64,000 nucleotides of DNA from the NCBI GenBank assembly GCA_013362805.1, contig JABFVL010000008.1:18465-82464 (forward strand), given 5' to 3'. The DNA comes from Mycobacteriales bacterium (GTDB lineage: Bacteria; Actinomycetota; Actinomycetes; Mycobacteriales; QHCE01). Positions 8,625 to 27,873 of the stretch are shown in pieces. The stretch's first letter is position 1; each line of letters begins with the position of its first letter. A program made the translations under genes and the position numbers. The notes beneath the pieces are model-generated. The model made no database searches, was not told the DNA's origin, and saw nothing but the letters and a program-made list of their open reading frames with translations.

Positions 8625-8643
8625 AGGCGCGATTGTGCCTTGT

Positions 8644-8937
8644 CTATCCGACGCTTTGTCGTTCCGTATTCCGTGTTGCGAGTTCTCGCATAATGTCGTC
8701 AGGTGTTATGCCATGGGCGGAGAGCAACACGGTGAGGTGAAATAGCAAGTCGGCTGTTTCGCTAATGAGTGGTTGTGCTTCACCGTTTTTGGCGGCGATA
8801 ACAACTTCTATGGCTTCTTCGCCAACTTTTTGGGTGATGCGGTCGTGTCCTTGCGCGAATAGGGATGCCACATAGGAGTTATCGGGCGTGGAATTTTTGC
8901 GTTGTTCGATGATGTCGAAAAGCTCGTTGAGGGTCAC
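8644..8937 (-). CDS. hisE: phosphoribosyl-ATP pyrophosphatase HisE
   Basis: The sequence (V)TLNELFDIIEQRKNSTPDNSYVASLFAQGHDRITQKVGEEAIEVVIAAKN is a typical HisE. The start is GTG at 8937, overlapping the hisI stop as GTGA. The longer track ORF (to 9129) is an out-of-frame extension over hisI. Confidence 0.85.
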   Translation of the reverse strand: MTLNELFDIIEQRKNSTPDNSYVASLFAQGHDRITQKVGEEAIEVVIAAKNGEAQPLISETADLLFHLTVLLSAHGITPDDIMRELATRNTERQSVG

Positions 8938-9254
8938 AGGTCTTCTCCTGGAGTAAAGAAACAGCTGTAGTTTCCGGTGTGACACACACCGGTTCCAACC
9001 ACGTCGACGCGAAACAGGAGCGTGTCGCGATCGCAGTCCACGAACATGGAACGCACTTTGAGTTGGTTGCCGGATGTTTCTCCTTTTTTCCACAGCCGCT
9101 CTTTGCTGCGGCTGTAGAAATGCATCCACCCGGTGTCTTGGGTTTGTGTGAGCGCTTCGGCATTCATATAGCCGAGCATCAACACCTCACCGCTGTCATG
9201 TTCTTGCACAATCGCGGGAACTAGTCCACCGCCTTTGGCGAAATCAATATTCAT
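8934..9254 (-). CDS. hisI: phosphoribosyl-AMP cyclohydrolase HisI
   Basis: 106 aa with GLVPAIVQEHDSGEVLMLGYMNAEAL...WKKGETSGNQL...DCDRDTLL...CHTG. The start overlaps the hisF stop as ATGA. Confidence 0.9.
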   Translation of the reverse strand: MNIDFAKGGGLVPAIVQEHDSGEVLMLGYMNAEALTQTQDTGWMHFYSRSKERLWKKGETSGNQLKVRSMFVDCDRDTLLFRVDVVGTGVCHTGNYSCFFTPGEDL

Positions 9255-10018
9255 CGTCGCACCGCGATTTTCTCCGCCGCCAGTTTTTCTTTTACTTGCG
9301 CGACGGTGAGCTCGCCGAAGTGAAATACGGATGCGGCTAGTGCCGCGTCGGCGGCATCACGGTGGAATAGATCCACGAAATCTTGAACGCTTCCGGCGCC
9401 GCCAGAAGCAACCAGCGGAATGGTGAGTTGTTGGTTAGCTGACCGCAGAAATTCGATGTCATAGCCAGCCTTCGTACCGTCAGCGTCCATGACATTCGCG
9501 GTGATTTCGCCAGCCCCGCGGTCTTGCGCTTCGCTGATCCATTGGAGCGCATCTCGCCCGGCCGCTTTTCGTGTCTCGTCCCGACCGGTGTGCGTGTATA
9601 CAACATGTCCGCCGTTTTCAGCGCGCACGTCAACTCCCACCACGATGCACTGTGAACCAAAGATTTCAGCGCTTTGGTTGATCAAATCTGGATTGGCGAG
9701 GGCCGCTGAGTTGAGTGAAACTTTGTCGGCTCCGGCCAGTAGCACGGCACGAATATCCTCGATGGTCCGAATTCCACCGCCCACGGTGAAGGGAATGAAT
9801 ATTTCGGCGGCGATGTGCCGCACCAGATCAAGCATGATGCCACGATTGTCGGCACTGGCGGTGATGTCGTAAAAGACGAGTTCGTCAACACCGTCTCTCG
9901 CATATTTTTTGGCGAGCTCTACCGCGTCGCCAGCATCGCGGTGTTGCGTGAATTTCACGCCTTTGACAACGCGGCCCTCACTGATGTCCAGGCAGGCGAT
10001 GATTCTTTTAGCCAACAT
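9251..10018 (-). CDS. hisF: imidazole glycerol phosphate synthase cyclase subunit HisF
   Basis: MLAKRIIACLDISEGRVVKGVKF...GADKVSLNSAA...ASGGAG is a classic HisF. The start is set at the internal ATG (10018); the track ORF is extended upstream into hisA. Confidence 0.9.
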   Translation of the reverse strand: MLAKRIIACLDISEGRVVKGVKFTQHRDAGDAVELAKKYARDGVDELVFYDITASADNRGIMLDLVRHIAAEIFIPFTVGGGIRTIEDIRAVLLAGADKVSLNSAALANPDLINQSAEIFGSQCIVVGVDVRAENGGHVVYTHTGRDETRKAAGRDALQWISEAQDRGAGEITANVMDADGTKAGYDIEFLRSANQQLTIPLVASGGAGSVQDFVDLFHRDAADAALAASVFHFGELTVAQVKEKLAAEKIAVRR

Positions 10019-10718
10019 TGGTGATCTCCGGAATGCTGAGCCGGTCTTCATACAGCGCTTTACCCACGATCGCGCCTTCGACCCCGAGGGTTTGTAGCTG
10101 GCGCAGGGCATCGACGGTGCTGACTCCCCCACTGGCGATCACTCGAGCTGAGGTGGCCCGCATCAGGTCAGTGATTTCGGCGTAGTTCGGCTCGGTGAGA
10201 GTGCCATCTTTAGACACGTCGGTGTACAAGAATCGCTGCACACCTTGGTGCGCTAGTTCGCGCGCGACGTCTAGAACATTGCCGGGTTCACTTTTGCGCC
10301 AGCCTCGACTTAGCAGCGTGCCGTTTCGAGTTTCTAGCGCCACTACCACATGGGCTGGATATTTCTTGAGCACGGTGTCAAACAGTGGTCGGTTCTCGAA
10401 CACCATTGTGCCCAACACCACGCGGAGCACACCGGCGTCGAGCAGCTCTTCCACATCTCGCAGGGTGCGAATGCCGCCGCCTACTTCGATAGGGATTCGC
10501 ACAGTTCGTGCGATTTCAGTGATGACTTTTCGGTTGGTCGATTCTCCATCGCGCGCGCCATCGAGGTCGACGATGTGTAGCATTCCGGCGCCTTGCGCTT
10601 CCCAGGTTTGCGCCACGGCCACCGGTTCGGCACTGTAGGTGGTTTTCTGCGCGAAGTCGCCTTGGGTGAGGCGGACGCATTGCCCGTCAAGAAGGTCAAT
10701 GGCGGGGATGACGATCAT
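10008..10718 (-). CDS. hisA: ProFAR isomerase HisA
   Basis: MIVIPAIDLLDGQCVRLTQGDF...HIVDLDGA...GGGIRT...ASGGVS. The start ATG at 10718 overlaps the hisH stop (ATGA). The upstream part of track ORF 10008..11072 is antisense or alternative-frame junk. Confidence 0.9.
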   Translation of the reverse strand: MIVIPAIDLLDGQCVRLTQGDFAQKTTYSAEPVAVAQTWEAQGAGMLHIVDLDGARDGESTNRKVITEIARTVRIPIEVGGGIRTLRDVEELLDAGVLRVVLGTMVFENRPLFDTVLKKYPAHVVVALETRNGTLLSRGWRKSEPGNVLDVARELAHQGVQRFLYTDVSKDGTLTEPNYAEITDLMRATSARVIASGGVSTVDALRQLQTLGVEGAIVGKALYEDRLSIPEITNVG

Positions 10719-11305
10719 GTGAGTCTCCAAAAGTTGCGCAGAAGTTCCAGGCCCGCTTCGCCACTTTTTTCTGGGTGGAATTGCACGCCGAATATGTTGT
10801 CTTGTTCTAGGGCCGAGCAGAATTCGATGCCGTATTCCGTTAGTCCGGCAACCGTGGCTGGCTCGGGCGCACAGTAGTAGGAGTGCACAAAGTAGAAATA
10901 TTCGTCTTCGAGACCTTTGAGTAGTCGGCCATTTTTGTACCGCACTTGATTCCAACCGATGTGGGGAATTTTCAATCCAGGTTCGAAGCGGTGTGCTTGA
11001 CCGGCCACAACGTCCAGGGTGGGCACGCGCCCTTCTTCGCTGCGGCTCAACAACAGTTGCATACCAAGGCAAATGCCGAGCACTGGCATACTTTGTCGAG
11101 CCGCGCTGGCGATGGCAACGTCGAGTGCCCGGCTGGTCAGCGCTTCCATTGCCGGGGCGGCAGCTCCGACACCGGGCACGATGAGTGCCCGTGCTTGCGA
11201 AAGCACCGCTGGATCGGCGGTGACTTCGTGCGAAATGTTCAACTTCCGCAATGCGTTGCTGACACTGCCGAGATTGCCGGCGCCATAGTCGAGGACCGCG
11301 AGCAT
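10715..11305 (-). CDS. hisH: imidazole glycerol phosphate synthase glutaminase subunit HisH
   Basis: MLAVLDYGAGNLGSVSNAL...GICLGMQLL...FVHSY...GVQFHPEKS carries the class-I glutamine amidotransferase triad. Confidence 0.9.
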   Translation of the reverse strand: MLAVLDYGAGNLGSVSNALRKLNISHEVTADPAVLSQARALIVPGVGAAAPAMEALTSRALDVAIASAARQSMPVLGICLGMQLLLSRSEEGRVPTLDVVAGQAHRFEPGLKIPHIGWNQVRYKNGRLLKGLEDEYFYFVHSYYCAPEPATVAGLTEYGIEFCSALEQDNIFGVQFHPEKSGEAGLELLRNFWRLT

Positions 11306-11899
11306 CTATAGCACCCCTTTGGTAGTCGGGAGCTGGTCTCCTAGCCGTGGATCCAAGGTCGTGGCCATTCGCAACGCTTTGGCTACGGCTTTGAAGATGC
11401 CTTCGGCACGGTGGTGATCGTTGCGGCCGAATTCCGATTTGATGTAAAGGTTGATTTTCGCGTTTTGGGCGAACGAGTCCCAGAAGTGGTAGATCATTTC
11501 GGTGCTCATATCACCTACTTTTTCGCGCGAAAATTCGACGTCGAAGCGAAACGAATAGCGACCGGACAGGTCGAGAGCTACGGTGCTCACGGCCTCATCC
11601 ATCGGCAAGATGAAATATCCGTGCCGGGCAATGCCACGCTTATCGCCTAGCGCTCCGGCAAGTGCGGTGCCCAAAGCGATGCCCGCGTCTTCCACAGTGT
11701 GGTGGTCATCGATAAAAGTGTCGCCAGTGGCGGCGACCCTGAGGTCAAACAGTCCGTGTTTCGCGAACTGTTCCAGCATGTGGGTCAAAAAGCCCACTGG
11801 GGTTTTAACGTCGCTGTTGCCTTTCCCATCAATGGTGAGAGATAGCTCTATCGCGGTTTCTTCAGTACGACGGTTCACATTTGCCTGACGACTATTCAT
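11306..11899 (-). CDS. hisB: imidazoleglycerol-phosphate dehydratase HisB (monofunctional)
   Basis: 197 aa with RRTEETAIELSLTIDGKG...DDHHTVEDAGIALG...GRNDHHRAEGIFKA. There is no HAD phosphatase domain. Confidence 0.9.
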   Translation of the reverse strand: MNSRQANVNRRTEETAIELSLTIDGKGNSDVKTPVGFLTHMLEQFAKHGLFDLRVAATGDTFIDDHHTVEDAGIALGTALAGALGDKRGIARHGYFILPMDEAVSTVALDLSGRYSFRFDVEFSREKVGDMSTEMIYHFWDSFAQNAKINLYIKSEFGRNDHHRAEGIFKAVAKALRMATTLDPRLGDQLPTTKGVL

Positions 11900-13160
11900 A
11901 ACGCAACTCCATGGCCCGTTGGTGGGCGGTCAACATTTCTTGTTCGGCGAGCGCCGACACGATGGGGCCGATTGTTTTAGCGCCTTGCTCATCCACCTGT
12001 TGAAAGGTGATGTGTTTTTGAAAGCTGGCTAGAGATACGCCGCCGTATGCGCGGGCGTATCCGCTGGTGGGAAGCACGTGATTGGTGCCGCTGGCATAGT
12101 CGCCAGCGGATTCACAGGAGTATGGGCCCAAAAACACCGAACCCGCATTAGTGATGGCTGGCACCCAGTTCGCCGCGTCTTCGACGTTGACGATGAGGTG
12201 CTCGGGTGCGTAGCTGTTTGAGAATGCGATGGCGTCGTTTATGGAGTCGACGACCAACACGAAACTGTGTTCGAGAGCTTGTTCGGCAATCGCCGCGCGG
12301 GGCAGCGCCGCGCACTGCTTCCCTACCTCTTCAACTATGCGATTGGCTTGGGTGATGTCGGTGCATACCGCGATGCCCACTGAATCGGGGCCGTGTTCGG
12401 CTTGAGAAAGCAGGTCGGCGGCGACAAAGTCAGCGCGCGCGTTCTGATCGGCGATGACCATCACTTCACTTGGCCCGGCTGGCATATCTATCGCGGCGCC
12501 CTGCGGGTCAATCGAAACCAACATTTTGGCGGCCATCACATATTGGTTTCCAGGGCCAAATATCTTGTCTACTTTCGGCACTGTTTCTGTGCCATATGCC
12601 ATCGCCGCCACCGCTTGTGCCCCGCCGATGGGGTAGATCTGCGATATCCCACATAGTTGTGCGGCATAAGCGATGCTGTCGGCAACCCCGCCTTGTTTCG
12701 TGGGTGGGGTCACCAACACGATTTCTGAACAGCCAGCGAGCAGTGCTGGTATAGCCAGCATCAACACGGTGGAGGGCAGCGGCGCGGTGCCTCCTGGGAT
12801 ATAGAGGCCCACTTTTTCAATGGGCCGCATTTCGGTGAAGCAGTTCACGCCCGGCATAGTTTCGACAGCGCGACGGTCGGTGTTTTGGGCTTGGTGAAAT
12901 TTCGAGATGTTCGCGGCCGCCGCTGAAAACGCGGTTTTCACTTCGGCTCCGAGCGTGCCACCCGCATCGGCGACTGATATTGGCCGGATTGATGTGTCGA
13001 TGCCATCAAATCGCGCGGTGAACTTTTGCACAGCACTATCACCGGAGGCTTTCACCTGGGTGAGGACATCTTTTACCGCTGGAACAATCGCCTCTAGGCT
13101 TACCGCTTTGCGCTGACAGAGCGCTAAAAGGTCCGCTTCTTTCGCTGAATAGATTTTCAT
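11892..13160 (-). CDS. hisD: histidinol dehydrogenase HisD
   Basis: Contains LYIPGGTAPLPSTVLM, GPGNQYV, SQAEHGPDS and PEHL motifs. The start is set at ATG 13160 (MKIYS), which overlaps the hisG stop as ATGA. Confidence 0.9.
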   Translation of the reverse strand: MKIYSAKEADLLALCQRKAVSLEAIVPAVKDVLTQVKASGDSAVQKFTARFDGIDTSIRPISVADAGGTLGAEVKTAFSAAAANISKFHQAQNTDRRAVETMPGVNCFTEMRPIEKVGLYIPGGTAPLPSTVLMLAIPALLAGCSEIVLVTPPTKQGGVADSIAYAAQLCGISQIYPIGGAQAVAAMAYGTETVPKVDKIFGPGNQYVMAAKMLVSIDPQGAAIDMPAGPSEVMVIADQNARADFVAADLLSQAEHGPDSVGIAVCTDITQANRIVEEVGKQCAALPRAAIAEQALEHSFVLVVDSINDAIAFSNSYAPEHLIVNVEDAANWVPAITNAGSVFLGPYSCESAGDYASGTNHVLPTSGYARAYGGVSLASFQKHITFQQVDEQGAKTIGPIVSALAEQEMLTAHQRAMELRYE

Positions 13161-13819
13161 GACGCTCCCCAAATAAACGATGCCGGGCCCACGTTGTCAC
13201 CGGCAATGATGACCGCTTCGGAGCGCAGCAGCGTGCCGATTTTGCGTAGTCCGTTCGCTTTGAGCGTCGAGCCGGTTTGAGTGACATCGCATATCGCGTC
13301 CGCCAAGCCCAGGGCCGGTGCGGCTTCTACGGCTCCACCTATTTGGATGATCGTCGCGTCAATGTCGTTGTCGCGTAGTTTTTTGCGCAGACTGTTTGGA
13401 TATGACGTCGCGATTCGGGTGCCGTTCAGATCGGCTAGCTGGCGAATAGGTGAACCATCTGGTGCGGCCACCATCACTTCGCAGGCGCCAAAGCCTAGTT
13501 TTTCTTGGACCGCGACGGCGGAGTCTTGTTCGTACAGCACGTTCTCACCGACGATGCCAAAGTCAGCCGCTCCACTTTGCACATAGTTTGGAATGTCGCT
13601 GTGCCGCACAAACACAATTTCGATGTTTCCAGGACAGGCGACAATAAGGGCGCGGTCGTTGTCGGATTGGTTTGGGGCGATGCCTCGGTCAGACAAAAGA
13701 GCCATGCTGGCGTCTTTGAGTCGCCCGGATTTTTGCACCGCGATTCGAATATTGGTGCGAGTCGAGGTGGTTTGCCACCTGACCGGCGCGACATCGCTTA
13801 ACAAAGATTTGGTAATCAT
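13157..13819 (-). CDS. hisG: ATP phosphoribosyltransferase HisG, catalytic domains only
   Basis: 220 aa with IRIAVQKSGRL..., DFGIVGENVL, RIATSYPN and GLADAICDVTQTGSTLKANGL. It ends right after the catalytic core, with no C-terminal regulatory domain. The N-terminal start is uncertain. Confidence 0.85.
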   Translation of the reverse strand: MITKSLLSDVAPVRWQTTSTRTNIRIAVQKSGRLKDASMALLSDRGIAPNQSDNDRALIVACPGNIEIVFVRHSDIPNYVQSGAADFGIVGENVLYEQDSAVAVQEKLGFGACEVMVAAPDGSPIRQLADLNGTRIATSYPNSLRKKLRDNDIDATIIQIGGAVEAAPALGLADAICDVTQTGSTLKANGLRKIGTLLRSEAVIIAGDNVGPASFIWGAS

Positions 13820-13837
13820 CTGCCTGTCTTTTCGAAT

Positions 13838-13873
13838 GAGAAAACAAAAAAGCCCTTCGCTGAGCGAAGGGCT
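13838..13873 (-). terminator. Rho-independent terminator between the yerC-like gene and hisG
   Basis: On the minus strand, AGCCCTTCGC-TCA-GCGAAGGGCT (10-bp perfect stem, 13873-13851) is followed by TTTTTTGTTTTCTC. Confidence 0.7.
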
Positions 13874-13888
13874 GAAAGTTGGGTGAGG

Positions 13889-14164
13889 TTACTGGGTTTT
13901 TTCCAGCACCAACTTGTAGCCGCCTTCGCCATGGTTTAACCAATGAGCGACGCGGGTGACGGTGGCGGTGCTGGAGCCGGTTTGTTTGGCGACTTCGCGA
14001 TAGGGCATGTCGTTGTTGACGAGTTTGGCGACGTGGAGACGCTCGGCCATCGCCGCGAGTTCAGAGCGGGTGCACAGGTCTGTGAAGAAGGCGGCGCATT
14101 CTTGCGGGGTTTTTAGGGAGGCGATAGCTGCGTAGAGCTCTTGAGCTTGCGCGTTGTCGTCCAT
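13889..14164 (-). CDS. TrpR-like YerC/YecD-family DNA-binding protein
   Basis: ELYAAIASLKTPQECAAFFTDLCTRSELAAMAERLHVAKLV...MPYREVAKQTGSSTATVTRVAHWLNHGEGGY is the hallmark of the YerC/YecD Trp-repressor-like family. The track start TTG at 14170 is less likely than ATG at 14164. Confidence 0.8.
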   Translation of the reverse strand: MDDNAQAQELYAAIASLKTPQECAAFFTDLCTRSELAAMAERLHVAKLVNNDMPYREVAKQTGSSTATVTRVAHWLNHGEGGYKLVLEKTQ

Positions 14165-14182
14165 CACCAATCCCGTCGCCGT

Positions 14183-14200
14183 GTTTTAACGTGTTAAAAC
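14183..14200. promoter_or_regulatory. AT-rich perfect palindrome, candidate operator upstream of the yerC-like gene
   Basis: GTTTTAAC-GT-GTTAAAAC lies 19-36 nt upstream of the ATG and is flanked by the outer complementary arms CGCCGTG/CACGGCG (14177-14212). Confidence 0.4.
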
Positions 14201-14238
14201 GTTAGCACGGCGACCCGCGTTGATGTCAACCCCAAATC

Positions 14239-14913
14239 TCAGGCATACAGCGCCAAAAACACCCCGACGTAATGACTCAGCGCCGCCAACACGGTTGCCG
14301 CGTGGAAAAACTCGTGATGCCCGAACTGCGTCCACGGATTCGGCCACTTCGTGGCATACAGCACCGCCCCGACCGTGTAAAAAACCCCACCAACAGCGAG
14401 CAAAACAACAATCGCGACGCCACCAAAGCGCAGCAAATCGGCCATCACAAAAACAGCGGCCCAACCCAAGGCGATGTAGAGCGGCACCGAAACCCAACGG
14501 GGCGTGCCCGGGAAAAACATCTTCAACGCCACACCCAACGCGGCCGCCGACCACACCACCCACAGCAACAAAGTCGCGCTCGACTTCGGCAACAACAGCA
14601 CACTGAAAGGGGTATAAGTCGCCGCGATGAACAAGAAGATCATCGAATGATCCGAGCGCTTCATGATGCGATACCCCAGCGGGCCCCAAGTCCGCCGGTG
14701 ATAGAGGGCACTCACCCCGAACAAACCGCAGGTGCCCACCGCGTACACGACGCAGCTCACTAACGGCGCGATGCCCGGGCGGGTCGCCGCGAACGCACAC
14801 AAGACCACGCCAGCCACAGCGGCCACAACGCTGGCATACAAATGGATCCACCCACGCGCACGCGGTCGACTAGCAGCCTTTTTAGCCTGTTCAAGGAGGG
14901 TTGTTGACACCAC
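14239..14913 (-). CDS. hemolysin III / PAQR-family membrane protein
   Basis: 224 aa with 7 hydrophobic helices. GWIHLYA, SALYHR, DHSMIFLFIAATYTPF and HHEFFHAATV are typical of the Hly-III family. Confidence 0.85.
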   Translation of the reverse strand: MVSTTLLEQAKKAASRPRARGWIHLYASVVAAVAGVVLCAFAATRPGIAPLVSCVVYAVGTCGLFGVSALYHRRTWGPLGYRIMKRSDHSMIFLFIAATYTPFSVLLLPKSSATLLLWVVWSAAALGVALKMFFPGTPRWVSVPLYIALGWAAVFVMADLLRFGGVAIVVLLAVGGVFYTVGAVLYATKWPNPWTQFGHHEFFHAATVLAALSHYVGVFLALYA

Positions 14914-15097
14914 ACAGCCAGGTTACTCGACCGTAGGTAGCGACCACTTTTCGCCAAGAAATTGTTTACCCACAGTTCACGCCAATACGACGCGCGGCGG
15001 ACGGCACCGCGCCACTACGAAGAGCTTGCCTGGCGCTTCACCTGTGATCTCCATGAAGTAACCAAGCCGCACACCATTTGGCAACTAACATCACGGC

Positions 15098-16246
15098 ATG
15101 CCAGCGAATACCCGCGATGCCGCTGTTCTTGCCTCACTCCACGAGCATTTAGCGAAACAGCCCGGAGCTGATCTTCCCCTGGAGGCTGTTCTGAAGGAGC
15201 TCATCGCCGATATTGAAGAGCCCGGGGAGGGAAGCATTCTCACGGATCTACTGGGGCCACATCTGCCGGAACCAGGCAGCGACAGAGCTCGCTATTTCGC
15301 TATGGAACTAAAGAACGGTGCTGTTGCCGAAGCGCTTGGCGGAAGATCCCCAGAACTGGCGGCCATGTTGCCCGCGTTGCGGGCGGGCCGTCACGACGAG
15401 ATGTATATGAGAGATTTTGGGCTCGCCGTTCTCGATACGGTTTACCAACGAAAAACCTATTTCACGGACCTGCTCAAGCGCGGCTTGCAAATGAACATTC
15501 CTTCCCGCGGTCGCGCACTATTTGTCGTCGAGCTACTTGCCGCACACGACACGGGTAACCGCCCGATCCAGGTGTTGGCGCTTGGCCCGAGCGCTGGCCT
15601 GGATCTACTGGCCGATCGCTATCGATACGCTTTTGACGGGGAAATATACGGCAGCAAAACGGCCGCCACGGTCATTAAGAATGGTTGGGGTGAAGCCGGA
15701 GAACACCGCAAGAAATTGCGCAGGTTCTTGTCCCAAGACTTGCCGCCAATTACTCGGAAAGGTTGCGATCTTTTTCCTCTCGATGCTACTAGCGAGAATG
15801 GTCAAGCTCTCTTACTTGCCCCGGTCGCACAATTGGACGAATACTTTAAGGAGTGCGAGACCGCGCTAAGCGACGCGAATGCCGAACAAAATCTTCTCTC
15901 CATAGTTAAAGGGCATGCCCCAAACTGGCTGGCACGAGAGCTATCCGATCGCCCGGAGGGCAAAACCACTATTGTGTGGAGTTCCACAATGGAGCGGTAC
16001 CTGTCTGTCCACGAGCGCGCCCAACTCCACGACACGGTTACGGCCGCAAAAGCGCACGCGACTGAGAGCAGCCCCTTCTATTACGTGCGTCTGGACTGCC
16101 CCGATGTCGCCAATCCGAACGCCCAAACTCTCCATGTCGAATCGGCGCCAAAAATGCGAACATTCAGCCTGCCCGTTTATGCCGGGGCTAATTTTTCGCT
16201 CGCTGACTTTTACGATGCGGCAATGCCCACGTTTGTAAAGAGATAG
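15098..16246 (+). CDS. DUF2332-like protein
   Basis: 382 aa. The motif LALGPSAGLDLLADRYRY and the later GCDLFPLD...TIVWSSTMERYL resemble the DUF2332 pattern as I recall it. Confidence 0.55.
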   Translation: MPANTRDAAVLASLHEHLAKQPGADLPLEAVLKELIADIEEPGEGSILTDLLGPHLPEPGSDRARYFAMELKNGAVAEALGGRSPELAAMLPALRAGRHDEMYMRDFGLAVLDTVYQRKTYFTDLLKRGLQMNIPSRGRALFVVELLAAHDTGNRPIQVLALGPSAGLDLLADRYRYAFDGEIYGSKTAATVIKNGWGEAGEHRKKLRRFLSQDLPPITRKGCDLFPLDATSENGQALLLAPVAQLDEYFKECETALSDANAEQNLLSIVKGHAPNWLARELSDRPEGKTTIVWSSTMERYLSVHERAQLHDTVTAAKAHATESSPFYYVRLDCPDVANPNAQTLHVESAPKMRTFSLPVYAGANFSLADFYDAAMPTFVKR

Positions 16247-16392
16247 ATCACGAACCGCACGGAGCCTAATCCGAAGTTCGGCATTTTTCGGTATCTCGAC
16301 AATCGCGTCCTGCCACATTGATTCCAGCTTGGCGCTCACCCCTATCGCCGTAGCGGCCATGACATGAGCGGTAGTCAGTTAGACTACCTACC

Positions 16393-18274: not shown

Positions 18275-18285
18275 GGACGCAATTT

Positions 18286-18318: not shown

Positions 18319-18341
18319 CGACTAAAAGCACGGAAGGAACA

Positions 18342-19314: not shown

Positions 19315-20574
19315 ATGCTAAATGACGAGAGCTATGGCCTTCTATTACGACGCTCGCGGCATGCGCGAAAGATGTCCCAGGGTGCTCTAGCCGCAGCTGT
19401 TTTCACCGATAAAACTCACATCTCACACATCGAACGAGGTCGCAGTGATGGGTCAGCTGACCTTGCTGCTCGCTGCGATGACGCGCTCGCGGCCGAAGGT
19501 GCGCTGGTCACCGCGCATTCCGCGCGGATGGCGCAGCGAGATCGTGAGGGTCAGAAGGATGACATCATGCGCCGTCGCACCATGCTGCAAGCGATGTCAG
19601 CTCTGGCAATGGGAATCGGCTCTGGAGCTACCGGGTTGGAAGCACTACGCCAGGGCCTTTCCCTTGCAGTAGGCGCTGACCGCAATAGCAATGAATGGCT
19701 CCTCATCGCCCACGAATACGCATCCCGGTATTTCACCGTCCCGGCCCCGATTCTTCTCACCGAACTGTCCTCTGATCTGACGGTCCTTCAGCACCTTCTT
19801 TCCGCGGAAACATCGGATGCTGGGCGACGTGATCTTTCCTCAGCAGGGGGGCCAGCTCGCCGCTCTCATGGCGATGAGTCTGAACAACATGGGACAGGAC
19901 CAGTCGGCCTCGCGGTGGTGGCGATCGGCCCGCCACGCACTCGATGCCTCAGGCGATGAGGTTTTGCGGCTGTGGGTACGCGGTTGCGAGGCGACCTTCT
20001 ATTTTCGAGACCATCCTGGCTATGCCGAGCGCGTGATCTCAGAAGGCCTGACTGTGGGTAGCACTCCATGTCATGGCTACGCGGCGCTTTTGGCCATACG
20101 CGCACAACTGTCCGCCCAACAAGGAGATAGACAAACGGCGGTGACAACGCTGCGCACAGCGGAGAAGGTCACTGAGGCGATGCCCGCCGCTATCGCCGAT
20201 GATGCGGTGTCTTTGCACGGTTGGCCTGCTCTGCGGTTTCATCACACCGCCAGCCTGTGTATTCCTACCTGGGAATGACGCGTGAGGCATACCGAGTGCA
20301 AGACGAAGCGCTCGCCGCCTATCCCACGGAGCTGAGGGTAGAGCGCATCAAAGTCGAACTCCACCGTGCGTTGTGTCTCGTCCATGACGGCGATATCCAG
20401 GGCGCCATGGCGCAAGGACATGCCGCTCTCGATGCCCTCCCATCCCCGCCGGGTGCCTCGATCTCATCATTTGTCCATGACCTGATGGCAGCGGTGCCAC
20501 CGCTTGAGCGCACGCGCACAGATGCCGCCGAGTTGCAGGCGCGGCTGCTGTCTATAGGGCAATCTGGTCAATGA
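19315..20574 (+). pseudogene. XRE-family HTH regulator with helical-repeat C-terminal domain, disrupted by two frameshifts
   Basis: The HTH (MSQGALAAAVFTDKTHISHIERG) and N-terminal part are in frame 1. The conserved-looking middle (GQLAALMAMSLNNMGQDQSASRWWRSA...) is in frame 2. The C-terminal part (VYSYLGMTREAYRVQDEALAAYP...LHRALCLVHDGD) is back in frame 1. The first shift coincides with a G6 run at 19846-19851 and the second lies near 20250-20258. Confidence 0.7.
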
Positions 20575-21092: not shown

Positions 21093-21143
21093 GTCTCCTT
21101 CGGGAATCACTGCCCGTTCGTATCTAGCTAGGGCTAGCATTTA

Positions 21144-21159
21144 TCGAACAAGTGTTCTA
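21144..21159. promoter_or_regulatory. LexA-type SOS box (Cheo-box-like)
   Basis: TCGAACAAGTGTTCTA matches the Gram-positive/actinobacterial consensus TCGAAC-N4-GTTCGA at 14 of 16 positions, with a perfect GAAC-N4-GTTC core. It lies in an AT-rich intergenic stretch. Confidence 0.5.
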
Positions 21160-21267
21160 ATCTGCTGGTCATGCATAGTGAGATTGAAAAACGGTGACTG
21201 CCCGGCTGGTACACGATCGCGTACCAGCACGCCGAGGCGCGCGCCTATAACACTCCAGCGGCGGCTG

Positions 21268-21450
21268 ATGAGTTGGCGAGTAGTTCGCCATGGCACTGCA
21301 CCATTCCCTGAGCTTGTTCGCTACTACGAAAAGGTCCAGGGTTGGAACGTTATTCGCGTGGCTGAGCGCCATGAGGTTAAGAGCTATGCCCTGGCCCGCC
21401 GAGCTGAGCCACAACCCGAGCTCGACGGTGGAATCGCGTTGAAAAACTGA
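21268..21450 (+). CDS. small hypothetical protein downstream of the SOS box
   Basis: 60 codons from ATG 21268 (MSWRVVRHGTAPFPELVRYYEKVQGWNVIRVAERHEVKSYALARR...). The track ORF starts at GTG 21178. No family recognised; coding status uncertain. Confidence 0.3.
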   Translation: MSWRVVRHGTAPFPELVRYYEKVQGWNVIRVAERHEVKSYALARRAEPQPELDGGIALKN

Positions 21451-21476
21451 TGATGGAAGCAGTGAGATGTTGTCAA

Positions 21477-22424
21477 CTACTGAACCAAAGTCTGCTTACC
21501 GGTCGCGCATATCCAGTTAGTGATCGCCTCGACGCGTTCTTGCGTCAGGGCGTGTGCACCGTCGTAACGCAGATGGGTCAGGTTCTCCCCAGCGTTTTGT
21601 GCCTCGTAGGTTGCTCGGGCGGCGTCCACAATGGCGGGCGCGTCGGCGGATGTGTCGTCCCCAGTGGCGGAAACGATGAGCATGGGGCGGGGCGCGGTGG
21701 CGCGCACAAGGTCGCCGATGTCGAATTCGCTGGCGAAACCTGGGATAACTTCTGCCATTTCGATGCCGGTTTCTTGCGCCATTTTTGTTGCATAGGTGCA
21801 GGCGGCGCCGCTGGAGGCGGCGAAGGCGATGCGTTGATCAATCGCGCTGTGGAACAGCACAGTGTTTCCGCCATAGGAATGACCGAATGTGCCGATGCGC
21901 GTGGAGTCAACGTGATCAAGCCGGTCGAGAAGTGTCACAGCCGCGCAGGCATCGGAGAGCACTTTGCGCATGAGGGTATCGCCCGTGACCAACCGGTATA
22001 CGAGTTCGTTGTAGTGCTGAAGCCAGTCGTCCGCGTGTGGCTCGCTGCCGCTGGTTTGGCGTCTGCGATCTTCAAAGCAAATGGAGTCGGGGCACAGCAC
22101 CACAAATCCCTCCCGGGCCAAACGCGGCCCGAACGCGTTTTGTTCATCGCCTAGAAGACCAGCTGTTTCGCTCTTGCCGAGGTGGCGTTCGCCATTGTGT
22201 TGATGTTGCAGCACGATCGCTGGGCATGATTCGTCGTCGACATTGGGCCGGAACAGATAGGCGGGAATCCGATCGCCCTCACCAGAATCGAAGGTGATCA
22301 GCTCGCGGCGGTAGTCGGCGAATTCTTTTACCGCGTGAGTCGTAAAGGTGCCGTCGGTGATAGGAATCGAAAGGTTGAGAAATGATGCGATATCGCGCGC
22401 GTTCATCGTCGAACTTCCTTCCAC
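21477..22424 (-). CDS. alpha/beta hydrolase (dienelactone-hydrolase / esterase-like)
   Basis: Has the nucleophile elbow GHSYGG and overall alpha/beta-hydrolase spacing. The start could also be MNARD at 22406. Confidence 0.8.
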   Translation of the reverse strand: MEGSSTMNARDIASFLNLSIPITDGTFTTHAVKEFADYRRELITFDSGEGDRIPAYLFRPNVDDESCPAIVLQHQHNGERHLGKSETAGLLGDEQNAFGPRLAREGFVVLCPDSICFEDRRRQTSGSEPHADDWLQHYNELVYRLVTGDTLMRKVLSDACAAVTLLDRLDHVDSTRIGTFGHSYGGNTVLFHSAIDQRIAFAASSGAACTYATKMAQETGIEMAEVIPGFASEFDIGDLVRATAPRPMLIVSATGDDTSADAPAIVDAARATYEAQNAGENLTHLRYDGAHALTQERVEAITNWICATGKQTLVQ

Positions 22425-22628
22425 ACCTTCGACGCGGTCACGCTTATTGTTTCACCCGCGCCGCATGCGGTGATTGAACGACCTGACGGTGGCGGACGGA
22501 CGCGGCCCAATGACGTACAAAGTAGAGTTCCCGCAGGTGAAAGGGCTACTCATACCCCATTGGGAGCTGCACAACCCCAAAGCTAGACAATGCTCACGGA
22601 AATAAGCACCGTCTAGGAGGGAAGAGGA

Positions 22629-22850
22629 ATGACAGAGCAAATAGCGGGCCCGAGGCAGCCTGGGCCAGCTAAGCCCGTAGACGAGCCCACTGCACGTCTG
22701 ATGGCACGACACTCAGACGACCTGCTGGAACGCGCACGAGCGGGTGCGATCGGCCCGTCCGTCGGAGCTCCCGGAGAAACCCCACCACCTACCGATTACC
22801 GGCAATTCATGGAGCCACAAACCGTGCAGGCACGGGTACCACGCCGATAA
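22629..22850 (+). CDS. small hypothetical protein
   Basis: 73 aa preceded by a strong Shine-Dalgarno (GGAGGGAAGAGGA-ATG). No motif recognised. Confidence 0.45.
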   Translation: MTEQIAGPRQPGPAKPVDEPTARLMARHSDDLLERARAGAIGPSVGAPGETPPPTDYRQFMEPQTVQARVPRR

Positions 22851-22873
22851 CCGCTAGATCCCCCTTGAGCTGC

Positions 22874-22914
22874 TTGGGGTGCACTGCGTGTACTCAAAAC
22901 CCAGTTCACCCCAA
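22874..22914. terminator. imperfect hairpin between convergent genes
   Basis: TTGGGGTGCAC...GTTCACCCCAA pairs at 10 of 11 positions with a 19-nt loop. Confidence 0.3.
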
Positions 22915-22954
22915 AGCCCAAACCCACGATGACGCGCACGCGCTGTCCGTTCAT

Positions 22955-25336
22955 TTAGGGACGCCTTCGCCCGGCGGATTTTGTAGCCGTCGTTGAATTG
23001 TTTGTGGCCGGTGGCTGCATCATCACGAGTGCTTGAGCACAGGCCTGGATGAAACCAGGGTCATACGCGTGACCGTGCTGCCGCTCCAAGCTCTTGAGGA
23101 TTTCCGGGGCGGCCCCGGCATATGCATGCAAATAGTCGATGCTTGCGCCCAGTTGCTGGGGATTGGCCGTCGCCGAGAACGCGACGCGCAGCGGATCTTC
23201 CTCATGCAAACGCACTACTTGATCACTTGGGTCTTGACCTTCCAATATCCCGAGCCGAGCGCCAACGAGTGTTGTCAGTGTCACGCGGGCAGTCTTACTC
23301 TGCTCACCTATCCTGATCCGCATCTTTTGTCGAGTGTTGTTGCGCGCTCCCCCAGTGTCCGCCGGGGTGGCGTCAATGATGCAGTCGTGGCCATCGCCCG
23401 TGACGCGGGCCTGTGCGTGCAAACTGGCATGAATGAGCTCATCAGCCCCTAGCTTGAGACCGGACACCCGCTCAACGTGCAGATGTGGCAGCAAATATTC
23501 AGTGGATGCTCGAATGAACTCGAAAGCCCCATCGCACTGAAAATTCAACACCCGATCGCGCACATAGCTGGAGAAATCTTTGAGGGTGAGTGCGCTGGAG
23601 TCCTTGGCGTGGCTGAGGTTCTGCAATGTGGTGTCGTACGTGTAGTTGGCAACCGCTTTGCCAGCCTGGACAAGGTCCGCTAGCGATGCTGGCGTCATGC
23701 CGGGATGCTGAAAAACCCGGCGAAAGTGTGCGCTGGCGCGCAATCCGATCGATTTATATTGTTCGACGAGTCCACTCAGGCGGGCCGTTGGAAGCAGCAG
23801 GCGGCGTGAGCCCTGATATGGGTCGATAGCAGTGCGTTGGAACGCCCACGTGTCTTCGGCGTGCGCGACCAGTTCGTAACCACCGATTTTTGGTCGATGC
23901 CCTTGATGCAGCCAACCCTCGGCCGAGTTCGGGAAATTCAATACCAAGTCGTATTCACCGGCTTCGATCGGCGCGGGCAGTTGCGAGCCTAGGTGTGGTT
24001 CTTGCTGGATGACACGAGTCACGCCATCCCATGCATCGCGGTGCGTGATGCTCCCGAGAATTATCTCTTTTTCTCTTTGCACTTCTTCCCATGAAGAGAT
24101 TGTGATTCTGCGATCGGGCTCCTCGCTCGTCTCTCTATAAGCTCTCAATGGGGTCTGGCTAGTGTCGAATATCTGACCTTGAGGTTGTTTGAGATGTAAA
24201 AGCATTGATGTGTTGCTGGTTTCAGCGAACGATTCGAACGTCAAAAAATGAGCGTTTCGCTCAATAGCCTGCTGCGCCGCTTCAACAAGACAAGATCGAG
24301 CATCAACACCATTGTTCAGATAAAAGAGCTTAATGAAATTCCTCGTCAAATCTCGAAACAAATGCTTCTCAAGACCCTGGGGTGCTATTTGCCGCAAAAG
24401 AGAATCACTCCAGCGATCCATCACGACATACGAGGGGACATCTACGCCGGAGACCCTTCTGATCATCAGCTCTGAAACATCAGCCGATGGTTGATAAATA
24501 TCGACAACGTCAACATGGTCGTCAGAGGATTTTCTACCGTGTTCGTTGATGCTAGCGAGAATCCAGTGATGTATACGTTCCCGTTGATTGCCCGAGGTTC
24601 GAGTCTGCGTCGTTTCGCGGTCAATGGCGGCGTGGATCCGATCTCGCTCAACGCGCAGGGCATGATGACTCGTTCTATCGATAGCCCGATCGACTGGAAT
24701 CCGATTGCGTATTTTAAGGGCGCTATCTTCGTTCGCTTTTCGACTAAAAATTTTCAGTTGATCAAGTGGTGCTTCACGAACATCGTTTGTGGAGTCTATA
24801 AGTGCACTTAAAAATTGATATTGGGGCGATTCGTAAACTATTCGCGAGACAGCCGACTTAATAGCTCCTTGTCGTGCCGCTACGAGAGAATCACGCTGGT
24901 CAGATATTACTTGCGACCGCTCTGAAAAATAGTCTGCTGTCTCATCCGATGACTCTACAAAAGTGTTATTGAAGAAAACTCCATCGCGTGCTCGTTGCAG
25001 ATAAAGCGTAGAGGGCACCGACTCACCCGACTGCGCGAAGTACATAAATCTGAGCTCATCAACATTCGCACGGAAAACTTCTCTGTCATCAGGATCCGCG
25101 ATTGCCGCAAGCTCGCTTCGTGCCCATTCTTCATACTCCCGGCGGAATTCATCTTCACCGACGAGAGAGAGCGCATCCAGCAATTGTTGCTCTGCTTCAG
25201 AGAGTGGGCGTAACACATACATCCATCGATTATCTCGCAGCTTCGGTGGGACAACCGTCAACCGAGTGGCGGATTCGACGCGCATACCCAGGTAGCCACG
25301 GCTAGCGCGGCCACTTTCATCGTTCGGGTTGACCAA
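22955..25336 (-). CDS. large cytoplasmic protein with C-terminal transglutaminase-like (papain-fold) Cys-His-Asp core
   Basis: 793 aa with a TTG start. The C-terminal region NFQCDGAFEFIRA...DELIHASLHAQARVTGDGHDCIIDATP fits the TGase-like C...H...D pattern (Cys codon 23534-23536, His 23429-23431, Asp 23372-23374). The N-terminal 550 aa or so have no motif I recognise. No signal peptide or TM segment is evident. The gene is AT-rich relative to its flanks. Confidence 0.75.
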   Translation of the reverse strand: MVNPNDESGRASRGYLGMRVESATRLTVVPPKLRDNRWMYVLRPLSEAEQQLLDALSLVGEDEFRREYEEWARSELAAIADPDDREVFRANVDELRFMYFAQSGESVPSTLYLQRARDGVFFNNTFVESSDETADYFSERSQVISDQRDSLVAARQGAIKSAVSRIVYESPQYQFLSALIDSTNDVREAPLDQLKIFSRKANEDSALKIRNRIPVDRAIDRTSHHALRVERDRIHAAIDRETTQTRTSGNQRERIHHWILASINEHGRKSSDDHVDVVDIYQPSADVSELMIRRVSGVDVPSYVVMDRWSDSLLRQIAPQGLEKHLFRDLTRNFIKLFYLNNGVDARSCLVEAAQQAIERNAHFLTFESFAETSNTSMLLHLKQPQGQIFDTSQTPLRAYRETSEEPDRRITISSWEEVQREKEIILGSITHRDAWDGVTRVIQQEPHLGSQLPAPIEAGEYDLVLNFPNSAEGWLHQGHRPKIGGYELVAHAEDTWAFQRTAIDPYQGSRRLLLPTARLSGLVEQYKSIGLRASAHFRRVFQHPGMTPASLADLVQAGKAVANYTYDTTLQNLSHAKDSSALTLKDFSSYVRDRVLNFQCDGAFEFIRASTEYLLPHLHVERVSGLKLGADELIHASLHAQARVTGDGHDCIIDATPADTGGARNNTRQKMRIRIGEQSKTARVTLTTLVGARLGILEGQDPSDQVVRLHEEDPLRVAFSATANPQQLGASIDYLHAYAGAAPEILKSLERQHGHAYDPGFIQACAQALVMMQPPATNNSTTATKSAGRRRP

Positions 25337-25401
25337 GCCACTAAACTAATCTCGTTCACCTAGAGCGAAAATGCGGCTCGGCATCACGTCCTGGAGATCC
25401 G

Positions 25402-26691
25402 GTGGAGTTTCGAGAACGCAACCCAGAAAATGTCGCCCGCGACGAAGCCGCCGCAGAAATGCTTGCCAGATTGCAGGCGATGGAAAATCGCGGCGAGATG
25501 GGCACCGCTGAATGGCGCCAACTCCGCGAAGAAGTCATCGACCACAGCCGCGGCTTCGCAATGTGGCTAGTGGAACATCGGATCATCGCACCGGAACTGA
25601 GCAGACAGTCCAATCAATACCATCAAGAAAGAAAAGACTTTAGGCAAGCTGCGGAACTTGGCGTGCTTGTCGCCATTGGTAATTTCATTTCTCCAGACCG
25701 CCGCGGGGATGAACCATTTTCTCGGTATCTCTCTAATGCGATTCTTGAGGAAGCCAGAGGCTTTCGGAAAGAAGTGTGGGACAAGAATATTCCCGAAGGC
25801 GGACAAGAAGCGGCAAAACATGTACGTCGAGCAATCTATCCATTAGTCAGAGAAAAAGGGGGAACAATAACGCTTGACGAATTGGTGGAAAAGCTTCGCC
25901 AACGCGACTCCTCATGGCACGCCGACAAGGTAAAAGAAATCTTGGGCTGGCTCCCCGAGCACTATTCCCAACAAGTTGTCCGTGAACGAGTGAATAGCAC
26001 CAGCTCGCGGGACAGATTTGGCACATTGAGAAACCACCGAGGCGGAATCTCATCACGTGACCAAGCAGCTGTGATGAAGTGGCTGGCCACACTTTCCGAA
26101 CGTGATAAAGCGATACTCATGCTTCGCTTCCAAGAACCGGGCGAGGGGCGACAGGCGCAAGTCGCAAGAATCGCGGACACCTATGACCTCAGACCCCTAG
26201 GAGTTGAAAGGATCGCGGGTCGACTACTTCGCGAACTTCAAGAGGCTCATCCAGAAATTGAAGTACGCGGTCTGCGGCCTCGCAAAGAATCTCGGCAAGC
26301 AACAGCCGCGGTGGCAGCCGCAGCTGAGAGACTAGACCAACCGGCGACCCGGCTCGAAGAACAAGAACCTGAGCTTGCCGAGTCAAAGCACGAAACAACA
26401 CCGCACGAACCGAGCTTGGAAACCGAAGACACACGAGGAAAAACAGAGAGCTTGCCCCCCGAGGCGAGAACGGAAACAACCCCCGTCGTATCGCTTCAAG
26501 ACTTTCCCCCTCCGCCCCGCTTCCCGCCTCGGCCTGCTATGCCCCCACCCCCACCAACCGATGCACCTCTTCATGTGGTGGCGCCGCTCACCGCGCGAAC
26601 CATTCCGCAAGATCAGCTGCTCTCAGGCTCAAGGTTCCAGAAAGCCATGCGGAGGATCCTGTTTTGGAAAAATCGATCGCCCCGTCGCTAA
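25402..26691 (+). CDS. divergent sigma-70-family protein with acidic/proline-rich C-terminal extension
   Basis: Region-2-like: DFRQAAELGVLVAIGNFISPDRRGDEPFSRYLSNAILEEARGF. Region-4-like HTH: LSERDKAILMLRFQEPGEGRQAQVARIADTYDLRPLGVERIAGRLLRELQ. The tail carries PPPPRFPPRPAMPPPPP. GTG start. Confidence 0.65.
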   Translation: MEFRERNPENVARDEAAAEMLARLQAMENRGEMGTAEWRQLREEVIDHSRGFAMWLVEHRIIAPELSRQSNQYHQERKDFRQAAELGVLVAIGNFISPDRRGDEPFSRYLSNAILEEARGFRKEVWDKNIPEGGQEAAKHVRRAIYPLVREKGGTITLDELVEKLRQRDSSWHADKVKEILGWLPEHYSQQVVRERVNSTSSRDRFGTLRNHRGGISSRDQAAVMKWLATLSERDKAILMLRFQEPGEGRQAQVARIADTYDLRPLGVERIAGRLLRELQEAHPEIEVRGLRPRKESRQATAAVAAAAERLDQPATRLEEQEPELAESKHETTPHEPSLETEDTRGKTESLPPEARTETTPVVSLQDFPPPPRFPPRPAMPPPPPTDAPLHVVAPLTARTIPQDQLLSGSRFQKAMRRILFWKNRSPRR

Positions 26692-26802
26692 AAGCGCGCT
26701 TGGCCTAACCCCAAAAAGAAGGCATTACACCCCCACAAGCCAAACCCGCTTACGGCTCTCGTTAGCTCGCACGCGGATGCCAGGAGCTCATAACATCGCT
26801 AT

Positions 26803-27222
26803 ATGACAAACGATGCTGTTTCTTCCGTGTGGCCAATCCTGCACTACGACGACACTCATAGTGCGCTGAGCTATTTCGTGAACGTGCTCGGCTTCCAACA
26901 AATAATCGCAGCCGAAGACGAACATGGTGATATAGGTCATGCCGAGCTAGCCTGGCCCGGTGGCGGCAGATTTGTCTTCGGCTCGACCAAGCACACCGAA
27001 TCCATTCATGGGCACATGCGTCCTGGAAATAACGCCATGTACGTCATCACCGACGACGTTGATTCTGTGTATCAACGAGTACTTGAATATAAAGGCGAAA
27101 TTGTGCATGCGCCTCGAGAAACCCAGTTCGGCTCTGGCGCCCAGGCCTATACGTTCACTACCCGTGACCCCGAAGGCAACCTATGGACCTTCGGCATGCC
27201 GCTAGATTCACGCAGCTCATGA
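26803..27222 (+). CDS. VOC-family (glyoxalase/bleomycin-resistance fold) protein
   Basis: 139 aa. ALSYFVNVLGF...GHAELAWPGG...YVITDDVDSVYQRV...RDPEGNLWTFG is typical of the VOC fold. Confidence 0.8.
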   Translation: MTNDAVSSVWPILHYDDTHSALSYFVNVLGFQQIIAAEDEHGDIGHAELAWPGGGRFVFGSTKHTESIHGHMRPGNNAMYVITDDVDSVYQRVLEYKGEIVHAPRETQFGSGAQAYTFTTRDPEGNLWTFGMPLDSRSS

Positions 27223-27227
27223 TCTTC

Positions 27228-27833
27228 TCAGCGATCTAGGCGACCACGGTAGGTGTGCACAGCGGCAATGAGTGCTTCTTGTTGGCCATACAGTTGCCCG
27301 GTAAGCGGGGTCCACCAATGGGAACCATCCTTGGCCACGACCCCATCCAGCTTATCGGGCTTAATGTCACCTATCTGAGTATTGAATTCCTCCACGGCGT
27401 GATCCTTGTGCTTTCGCCAGTGAGGCAACACAGTCGCCAGTAGTGGCGATGCCCCTTTCGCGGCCCACGCACTCAACACATGGCTACCCGGCGAGCGCCC
27501 TAGGTCTCTGGCAGCGGCTGTTAGTTCACGCCGTGATGGCCTTGACCAATAAGCGAGTGCCCACGATGCGGCAAGAGCCTCTTGGCGTATGTGAGCGTTG
27601 TCTTTCTCAAACTGAACTAAAACCGGATCTGTCAACTCGATGAAATGATCGTCCTCCACGACAGACCCGTTGATGACGCCTTGCACCTCGGAAAGGTCTA
27701 AATCAATCATGCTCGCATTGCCGAGCACAGCATCTGTTGCGGGCTTGAAAGGCGAACCGTCGATCATGTTAGGGAAAAGTCCGCTCCCGCATTTGTCCGA
27801 GTAACGCGCAATTCTTCGCTCAAACCGTCCCAT
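27228..27833 (-). CDS. hypothetical protein
   Basis: 201-aa ORF starting 40 nt downstream of the adnA stop on the same strand. No motif recognised. Confidence 0.5.
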   Translation of the reverse strand: MGRFERRIARYSDKCGSGLFPNMIDGSPFKPATDAVLGNASMIDLDLSEVQGVINGSVVEDDHFIELTDPVLVQFEKDNAHIRQEALAASWALAYWSRPSRRELTAAARDLGRSPGSHVLSAWAAKGASPLLATVLPHWRKHKDHAVEEFNTQIGDIKPDKLDGVVAKDGSHWWTPLTGQLYGQQEALIAAVHTYRGRLDR

Positions 27834-27873
27834 GGAATCTGACCTTTCATATCTCTGTTACAGGTTTGCGGCA

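Follow-up and report, generated by a model that had tools for sequence, protein, structure and literature searches.

In mycobacteria, double-strand breaks are resected mainly by the helicase-nuclease AdnAB, whose two subunits have been regarded as encoded by one operon and produced jointly. A 2019 cryo-electron microscopy paper reportedly described an iron-sulfur (Fe-S) cluster subdomain in AdnA with four cysteine ligands. We analysed a 64,000-nucleotide stretch (hereafter the window) of contig JABFVL010000008.1 (110,390 bp), from a metagenome-assembled genome (MAG) that NCBI labels Corynebacteriales/Mycobacteriales. In this stretch adnA and adnB are separated by exactly 19,249 bp and about 26 genes, some of them on the opposite strand. 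The lineage is that of an uncultured, poorly sampled actinobacterium. We regard it as likely that an ancestral adnA-adnB operon was split here by successive insertions, in at least two layers, between the adnA stop and the adnB start.

In the mycobacterial system (Mycobacterium smegmatis MSMEG_1941/1943; PDB 6PPJ, 6PPR, 6PPU, 7SJR), each subunit combines a superfamily 1 (SF1) motor with a RecB-type nuclease. The catalytic residues of the M. smegmatis proteins include AdnA D934 and AdnB D285 and D1014, and a tryptophan of AdnB motif III serves as pawl (PMC5314763, PMC8789073). The two genes are referred to as the adnAB operon (PMC5314763), and adnA expression, or the adnAB promoter, is PafBC-dependent in mycobacteria (PMC8682763). 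AddAB and RecBCD belong to the same functional class, that of helicase-nucleases resecting double-strand breaks with SF1 motors and RecB-type nucleases, but the similarity of the window proteins to them is much weaker (at most 67 bits to AddA or RecB).

AdnA and AdnB and the distance between their genes

The products of 5538-8624 and 27874-31023, both on the minus strand, each carry the Pfam domains UvrD-helicase, UvrD_C and PDDEXK_1. In phmmer searches of the PDB the former aligned with M. smegmatis AdnB at 767 bits (residues 2-1027 against 10-1080), compared with 170 bits to PcrA and 48 bits to AdnA. The latter matched M. smegmatis AdnA over its full length at 548 bits, compared with 113 bits to AdnB. 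The adnA open reading frame (ORF) spans 27874-31023, its annotated start is the ATG at 31020, and the exact product is on record. From these alignments the two proteins are clearly orthologues of AdnA and AdnB, as the earlier note on this DNA had proposed from their features, and 5538-8624 goes with AdnB and not with the UvrD/PcrA paralogues.

The sequence motifs of both subunits are intact. AdnB has the Walker A motif GSGKT, DEYQD, motif III GDPCQSIYGWRGA with its tryptophan, and the nuclease motifs GRMD...DVVDWK...QLAAY, while AdnA has GTGKT, DEYQD and the nuclease motifs GRVD...DFK...QLGMY. AdnA also contains Cys812 and a C-terminal cluster, C1030-x2-C1033-x4-C1038-C1039 (CxxCxxxxCC), which is kept in the relative described below; these cysteines are assigned as Fe-S ligands by pattern only. 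The window pair shares with mycobacterial AdnAB the two-subunit plan with an SF1 motor and a RecB-type nuclease each, the catalytic Asp/Lys residues, Walker A, DEYQD, the AdnB motif III tryptophan and the AdnA C-terminal cysteine cluster. Motif inspection revealed no sign of decay in either protein, and the two presumably still form the double-strand-break resection heterodimer. All AdnAB sequence features that we checked were found, save that the AdnA Fe-S ligands are pattern-assigned; the operon arrangement is the only feature that is missing. Unlike in the mycobacterial operon, adnB lies behind a his operon and a single promoter would not be shared.

To place this arrangement, AdnB was used to scan one genome per GTDB species, which gave 80 comparator loci at 50-56% identity, mostly from Micromonosporaceae. 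The adnA gene is directly upstream of adnB in 81/82 comparator actinobacterial loci (79 of the 80 genome loci and 2 further ones), and the extrapolated gap from the adnA end to the adnB start ranges from -16 to 219 bp, with a median of 65 (77 loci). The genes are likewise adjacent in L059 and L077; they overlap by 4 bp in a Mycobacteriales MAG (L089) and are contiguous in a metagenome locus (L088). The contiguity that the earlier note had given for mycobacteria extends to these other species, and its figure of 19,249 bp for the window was exact. The sole exception among the comparators is L018, from a Micromonospora MAG, whose contig reaches only 1.7 kb beyond adnB on the upstream side; positions 1-1700 contain an oppositely oriented YCII-domain gene and lack the 3' end of adnA. 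This may represent another, independent separation of the two genes or a fault of the assembly. We found no report of a split adnAB in the open-access literature searched, and the accessions of the samples led to no pertinent publication.

The order and strand of adnA and adnB in the window are the ancestral ones. Upstream of adnA we found a beta-lactamase-fold gene, DUF3152, TetR, MiaE_2 and a DEAD-box helicase, and the DUF3152 gene is also upstream of adnA in 16 comparator loci. This gene order appears to resemble that of Rv3207c-Rv3211 in M. tuberculosis. Because the DUF3152/TetR/MiaE_2/DEAD-box neighbours are conserved, the adnA side of the window is native backbone.

A relative and the layering of the interval

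Close relatives of this locus are rare: the best AdnB in the one-genome-per-species scan is 56% identical, and among 5.8 billion proteins no other AdnB exceeded 57% identity, the value of the next-best full-length match. A search with HisD gave a 70% match in a different sample (SRR13588914), on a Logan contig of 5.8 kb (L083). This contig carries, in order, the 3' part of adnA, hlyIII, ParE/Phd, hisR, hisG, hisD, hisB and the start of hisH. The identities to the window are 85% for the AdnA C-terminus (window residues 769-1049), 87% for HlyIII, 78% for HisR, 66% for HisG, 70% for HisD and 79% for HisB. In L083, hlyIII directly follows adnA, with a spacer of only about 72 bp that aligns cleanly. 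Aligned as DNA, L083 matches the window as far as the adnA stop at 27874; the match picks up again at window ~14,990, some 75 bp upstream of hlyIII, and the 12.9 kb at window ~14,991-27,873 are missing from L083. The comparison indicates that the common ancestor had the hlyIII-hisR-his module directly downstream of adnA. Another candidate relative, P0211 (HisD 68%), was discarded, its context being unrelated.

The ParE toxin/Phd antitoxin pair of L083 (1616-2171, opposite strand) lies between hlyIII and hisR, where the window has a 68-bp spacer. It is the relative's own independent insertion, and since it was gained independently in the same interval, the site tolerates insertions. We read the L083 comparison as direct evidence for layering at a permissive site.

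Composition was assessed by the leave-one-out tetranucleotide correlation (r) to the flanks, compared with the lowest value among flank windows of the same length. All three sub-blocks of the interval fell below every same-sized flank window: r was 0.891 for the his block (flank minimum 0.927), 0.922 for 14,991-22,900 (0.942) and 0.779 for 22,901-27,873 (0.918), the last having a GC content of 54%. For the whole 14,991-27,873 segment r was 0.916, against a flank minimum of 0.962. The three sub-blocks deviate in composition from the flanks, which agrees with a foreign origin, and the 12.9-kb segment is heterogeneous within itself. The patchiness had first been noticed from hand counts of GC in the earlier note (46/60 at 6001-6060, 30/60 at 11401-11460 and 21/60 at 24301-24360), and all three counts were exact.

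No tRNA was detected in the 64 kb, and no integrase or transposase Pfam domain in any ORF of the block of at least 80 aa. Local alignments of the three border pairs, searched for att-like repeats, stayed at the level of shuffled sequence, with only short repeats of the kind expected by chance. The block resembles classic genomic islands in its atypical composition, its accessory-type cargo, its interruption of a conserved pair and its content that differs among relatives. It differs from them in lacking an integrase, a transposase, a tRNA target and flanking repeats, and in having at least two layers of different age; it is not a classic genomic island or integrative element. Together with the layering seen in L083 and the atypical composition, this agrees with the earlier note, which had found no such mobility signatures and had spoken of stacked acquisitions at one permissive site.

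In the order of events that we favour, the older layer, common to the window and L083, would comprise hlyIII and a self-contained, non-actinobacterial hisR-hisGDBHAFIE operon with its own promoter and a HisR-type operator. The second layer, found in the window lineage only, would be the ~12.9 kb at 14,991-27,873. It would have brought DUF2332, PadR with an ABC exporter, a probably frameshifted XRE regulator, a GNAT protein, a hydrolase, a low-GC part (a 793-aa Cys-His-Asp protein, a sigma-like protein and a VOC protein) and an orphan. AdnA and AdnB would have stayed intact and would still make up the AdnAB resection heterodimer, with co-transcription and translational coupling lost. The adnA gene would keep its native upstream context, and adnB would be expressed at the end of the his transcript or through an unrecognised internal promoter.

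Several observations weigh against this reading. Only one close relative was present in all the collections searched, and its contig ends in hisH, before hisE/adnB. A search with the first 220 aa of AdnB for the relative's adnB side gave no fragment above 65%, and two scans of metagenome contigs with the AdnA C-terminus gave first nothing and then one 32% match. The his proteins diverge more between the window and L083 (55-79%) than AdnA and HlyIII do (85-87%). The best PDB matches of HisA are actinobacterial PriA/HisA proteins (167 bits, versus 142 for Salmonella HisA), and the donor signal is accordingly mixed. With a conserved terminator-like hairpin between hisR and hisG, it is uncertain how the transcripts are organised. 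Whether the 12.9-kb difference is an insertion or a deletion is read from composition and a single relative, and window 17.1-26.9 kb is backed by the MAG contig alone. On its downstream side, adnB has no recognisable genes of the conserved adnAB neighbourhood, and a rearrangement there is possible.

The question of direction leads to the alternative that the common ancestor already had the 12.9-kb segment and the lineage of the relative lost it, the window being the older state. Only two genomes are comparable, and the clean ~72-bp spacer between adnA and hlyIII in L083 would fit a precise deletion as well; against this stand the atypical composition of the segment as a whole, the strong deviation of its 22.9-27.9 kb part and the probably frameshifted regulator that it holds. 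We judge a deletion unlikely, and even then an insertion of the segment into a once contiguous adnAB would have happened, at an earlier date. The genes downstream of adnB (encoding an 838-aa and a 217-aa protein of unknown function and an M20 peptidase) bear on a second alternative, in which adnB, with the genes behind it, was relocated beside a his locus already in place, or the regions were joined through an inversion or translocation. Such a rearrangement would account for the lack of conserved neighbourhood genes on that side, but adnA and adnB keep their ancestral order and strand, the his module abuts adnA itself in L083, and the module is foreign in type and composition; we consider this very unlikely.

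The arrangement was also checked in an independent assembly. Positions 1-10912, 10914-17121 and 26927-33815 of the window recur, with 99.9-100% identity, in Logan contigs built from the same run (SRR11467474), and this second assembly contains all three junctions examined, hisE/adnB, hlyIII/DUF2332 (on contig L087) and orf201/adnA. The exact AdnB protein is also encoded on contig L081, and the VOC gene, the 201-aa orphan and adnA lie together on contig L082. The split arrangement of adnA and adnB is not an assembly artefact. That the MAG contig is an assembly or binning chimera of unrelated pieces is hardly credible and already largely refuted, for although the sequence is a metagenome-assembled contig whose 17.1-26.9 kb were not recovered in the second assembly, the three junctions recur there with near-perfect identity and one contig from a different sample shows adnA-hlyIII-his.

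The his operon and the transcription of adnB

The his cluster is a complete unit in the order hisR-hisG-D-B-H-A-F-I-E, with a TrpR-family regulator at its head. The GC content of its his genes is 51-59%, versus about 62% for adnA and adnB, and the his genes are GC-poorer than adnA in L083 as well as in the window. None of the best 120 matches of HisD carries an actinobacterial name; those with names, at 54-63% identity, are Patescibacteria, Gracilibacteria, Peregrinibacteria, Saccharibacteria or an unclassified uncultured bacterium. In two Patescibacteria loci (L084 and L085) a TrpR-family gene also heads the his operon, with HisR 64% and HisD 60% identical to the window proteins. These matches point to a his operon of non-actinobacterial type. 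Since the module is foreign in type and composition, it is not a resident locus of the usual actinobacterial kind.

The earlier note had counted about two dozen unrelated genes in the interval. The number holds, at about 26, but ten of these genes form one coherent his module. Pfam bears out its list of gene contents, with the correction that the his cluster is complete and led by hisR, and that the label 'sigma' for one gene of the segment corresponds to a sub-threshold NCBIfam match only. The inserted his operon could be the organism's only one, and the label 'accessory' for the block is unproven for this reason.

HisR is a histidine repressor of the TrpR family, found mainly in Firmicutes; its operator is a 20-bp palindrome with the core TTTA-N6-TAAA, located in the promoter region (PMC9413887). 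In Actinobacteria the only reports of it concern Coriobacteriales and Eggerthellales, and its gene never lies in a his cluster there (PMC9413887). The palindrome GTTTTAACACGTTAAAAC is identical in the window and L083, although its flanks differ, and it fits this core. The window module shares with the HisR-controlled his operons of Firmicutes and some Proteobacteria (Ashniev et al. 2022, PMC9413887) the TrpR-family leader, the palindrome just upstream of hisR and the his genes that follow. It differs from them in that its host is a Mycobacteriales-type actinobacterium, where hisR-linked his operons are unreported, that HisG is short with no adjacent hisZ, that hisC is absent, that hisI and hisE are separate and that adnB comes after hisE. 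The module has the sequence features of a HisR-controlled operon, and histidine-dependent binding and repression by HisR are predicted from them.

No hisZ adjoins hisG, and hisC and a histidinol-phosphatase gene are absent from the operon. HisG lacks the C-terminal regulatory domain, yet its catalytic core scores better against long-form HisG structures. Both the window and L083 (~2620-2646) keep the hairpin between hisR and hisG, about 30 nt before the hisG start; it could terminate or attenuate transcription or affect RNA stability. Rfam detected no T-box or His leader, its only match being an AdoCbl riboswitch elsewhere in the window.

With adnB only 19 nt behind hisE and no terminator in that spacer, adnB is probably transcribed apart from adnA. 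The sequence AAGG lies 13 nt upstream of the adnB start. A search for sigma-70 consensus sites gave none above chance, and the only convincing hairpin is the one between hisR and hisG. The RecA-NDp/PafBC-type motif, taken here as TGTCRGTG-N8-TANNNT, has no match in the window, an absence that says little. We infer that each subunit has a transcript of its own, which for adnA would start in the native region upstream. Transcription of adnB probably reads through from the his operon or begins at an unrecognised promoter within hisI or hisE; in the former case HisR and histidine would control adnB.

A stronger version holds that adnB was captured as the last cistron, or among the last cistrons, of an acquired HisR-repressible his operon while adnA keeps a damage-responsive promoter, which we put forward as a speculative and rather improbable idea. 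If it were true, the level of this motor subunit would be set by the histidine status of the cell and would not be stoichiometric with AdnA; the locus would then serve as a natural experiment in which the two subunits are uncoupled, with AdnB perhaps working in part without its partner.

Other genes of the window and meaning of the split

The features of the interval and its borders are collected in Table 1.

Table 1. Genes and sites at the split adnA-adnB locus (window coordinates)
Feature	Position	Strand	Basis
adnB, 1028 aa, UvrD-like motor and RecB-type nuclease	5538..8624	-	full-length match to M. smegmatis AdnB; Pfam domains
hisE-adnB spacer, 19 nt, no terminator	8625..8643	-	sequence read; terminator scan empty here
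hisE	8644-8937	-	Pfam; gene calls on L081/L087
hisI	8934-9254	-	Pfam; gene calls on L081/L087
hisF	9251-10018	-	Pfam; gene calls on L081/L087
hisA	10008-10718	-	Pfam; gene calls on L081/L087
hisH	10715-11305	-	Pfam; gene calls on L081/L087
hisB	11306-11899	-	Pfam; gene calls on L081/L087
hisD	11892-13160	-	Pfam; gene calls on L081/L087
hisG, short form, 220 aa	13157-13819	-	Pfam; gene calls on L081/L087
GC-rich hairpin and T-run between hisR and hisG, terminator-like	13851..13873	-	10-bp stem, best site in scan
hisR-like TrpR-family regulator	13889..14170	-	PF01371, E=3e-26
Promoter-like TTGACA (14224-14229) and palindrome GTTTTAACACGTTAAAAC (14183-14200), candidate HisR operator	14183..14229	-	
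hlyIII, hemolysin-III family membrane protein	14239..14913	-	PF03006, E=2e-43
Segment absent from relative L083	14991..27873	.	homology to L083 stops at adnA stop 27874, resumes ~75 bp upstream of hlyIII
DUF2332	15098-16246	+	Pfam, NCBI name
PadR	16393-16749	+	Pfam, NCBI name
ABC ATPase	16743-17573	+	Pfam, NCBI name
ABC permease	17570-18274	+	Pfam, NCBI name
XRE-HTH ORF, then two overlapping ORFs, alternating frames	19315..20574	+	HTH_31 E=5e-10; TPR_14 E about 0.1 in 19817-20278 and 20221-20574
GNAT acetyltransferase	20571-21092	+	Pfam
Alpha/beta hydrolase	21477-22424	-	Pfam
793-aa protein, rare family, invariant Q-C-x-G...H...D-x-T	22955..25336	-	lowest-GC part of block
429-aa weakly sigma-70-like protein, divergent from 793-aa gene	25402..26691	+	TIGR02980 SigB/F/G 47 bits (cut-off 234), E=2.5e-12
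VOC/glyoxalase	26803-27222	+	Pfam
201-aa orphan, directly downstream of adnA	27228-27833	-	
adnA, 1048 aa, UvrD-like motor, RecB-type nuclease and C-terminal Cys cluster	27874..31020	-	full-length match to M. smegmatis AdnA

NCBI accessions NUS72282 (DUF2332) to NUS72297 (orphan) would correspond to 16 annotated coding sequences between hlyIII and adnA, from which the total of about 26 for the whole interval was derived. The ORFs of the XRE region lie in frames 1, 2 and 1, as computed from their coordinates, and are possibly a single frameshifted XRE-TPR regulator. The XRE helix-turn-helix and the GNAT gene named in the earlier note were found, and the decay that it ascribed to the regulator is inferred from these frames and the weak TPR matches.

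The 793-aa protein belongs to a family of ~800-aa proteins with 88 cluster representatives among 1.84 billion, in which Q600, C601, G603, H640, D655 and T657 are invariant. In its AlphaFold2 (AF2) model (pLDDT 79) the cysteine is at a helix N-terminus and the histidine and aspartate are on the following strands. A papain/transglutaminase (TGase)-like Cys-His-Asp triad is plausible, and the label is unproven. The protein had no match in Pfam, NCBIfam, PADLOC or the PDB, and its AF2 model none in the PDB by Foldseek. An origin of the low-GC part in a mobile element or defence system was considered and dropped: the 793-aa protein had no tblastn match in plasmids and no relative on viral contigs. 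PADLOC, run on ten ORFs, returned no defence system, only generic helix-turn-helix matches. The 429-aa protein has no Pfam match and is called hypothetical by NCBI. A conserved pairing of the TGase-like and sigma-like genes was not supported, as the locus of the best homologue (L090) has no sigma neighbour.

On the other side of adnB, the 838-aa ORF (3009-5525, minus strand) starts 13 nt past the adnB stop on the same strand and may be co-transcribed with adnB. It has no match in Pfam, NCBIfam or PADLOC and no homologue in the 80 comparator loci. In many of the comparator loci (L001-L080) a third UvrD-like helicase, possibly UvrD2-like and 25-31% identical to AdnA/AdnB, is found about 7-12 kb downstream of adnB; it was not seen in the 5.5 kb that the window holds there. 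Elsewhere in the window, a stand-alone 294-aa PD-(D/E)XK nuclease (43080-43964, minus strand; PDDEXK_1, E=3e-34) is encoded near the DEAD-box helicase gene (40738-42444). The AdoCbl (B12) riboswitch (51345-51484, plus strand; RF01482) scored 58 bits, which exceeds the gathering score, and is located at the 5' end of an ORF of 361 aa (51383-52468).

What is new here is the gene order of the known AdnAB system, not a new system. The understanding of AdnAB function is unchanged, and the value of the locus is comparative, with evidence from two metagenomic organisms only. A split adnAB is mildly surprising to the specialist and opens no long-standing question. The locus documents an integrase-free insertion hotspot inside a repair operon. 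A clear hisR-led his operon in a Mycobacteriales-type genome, with the nearest named relatives of its HisD in Patescibacteria, bears on the transfer of amino-acid modules between phyla. As both subunits appear intact after at least two rounds of insertion, co-transcription and translational coupling would be dispensable for keeping the AdnA-AdnB pair.

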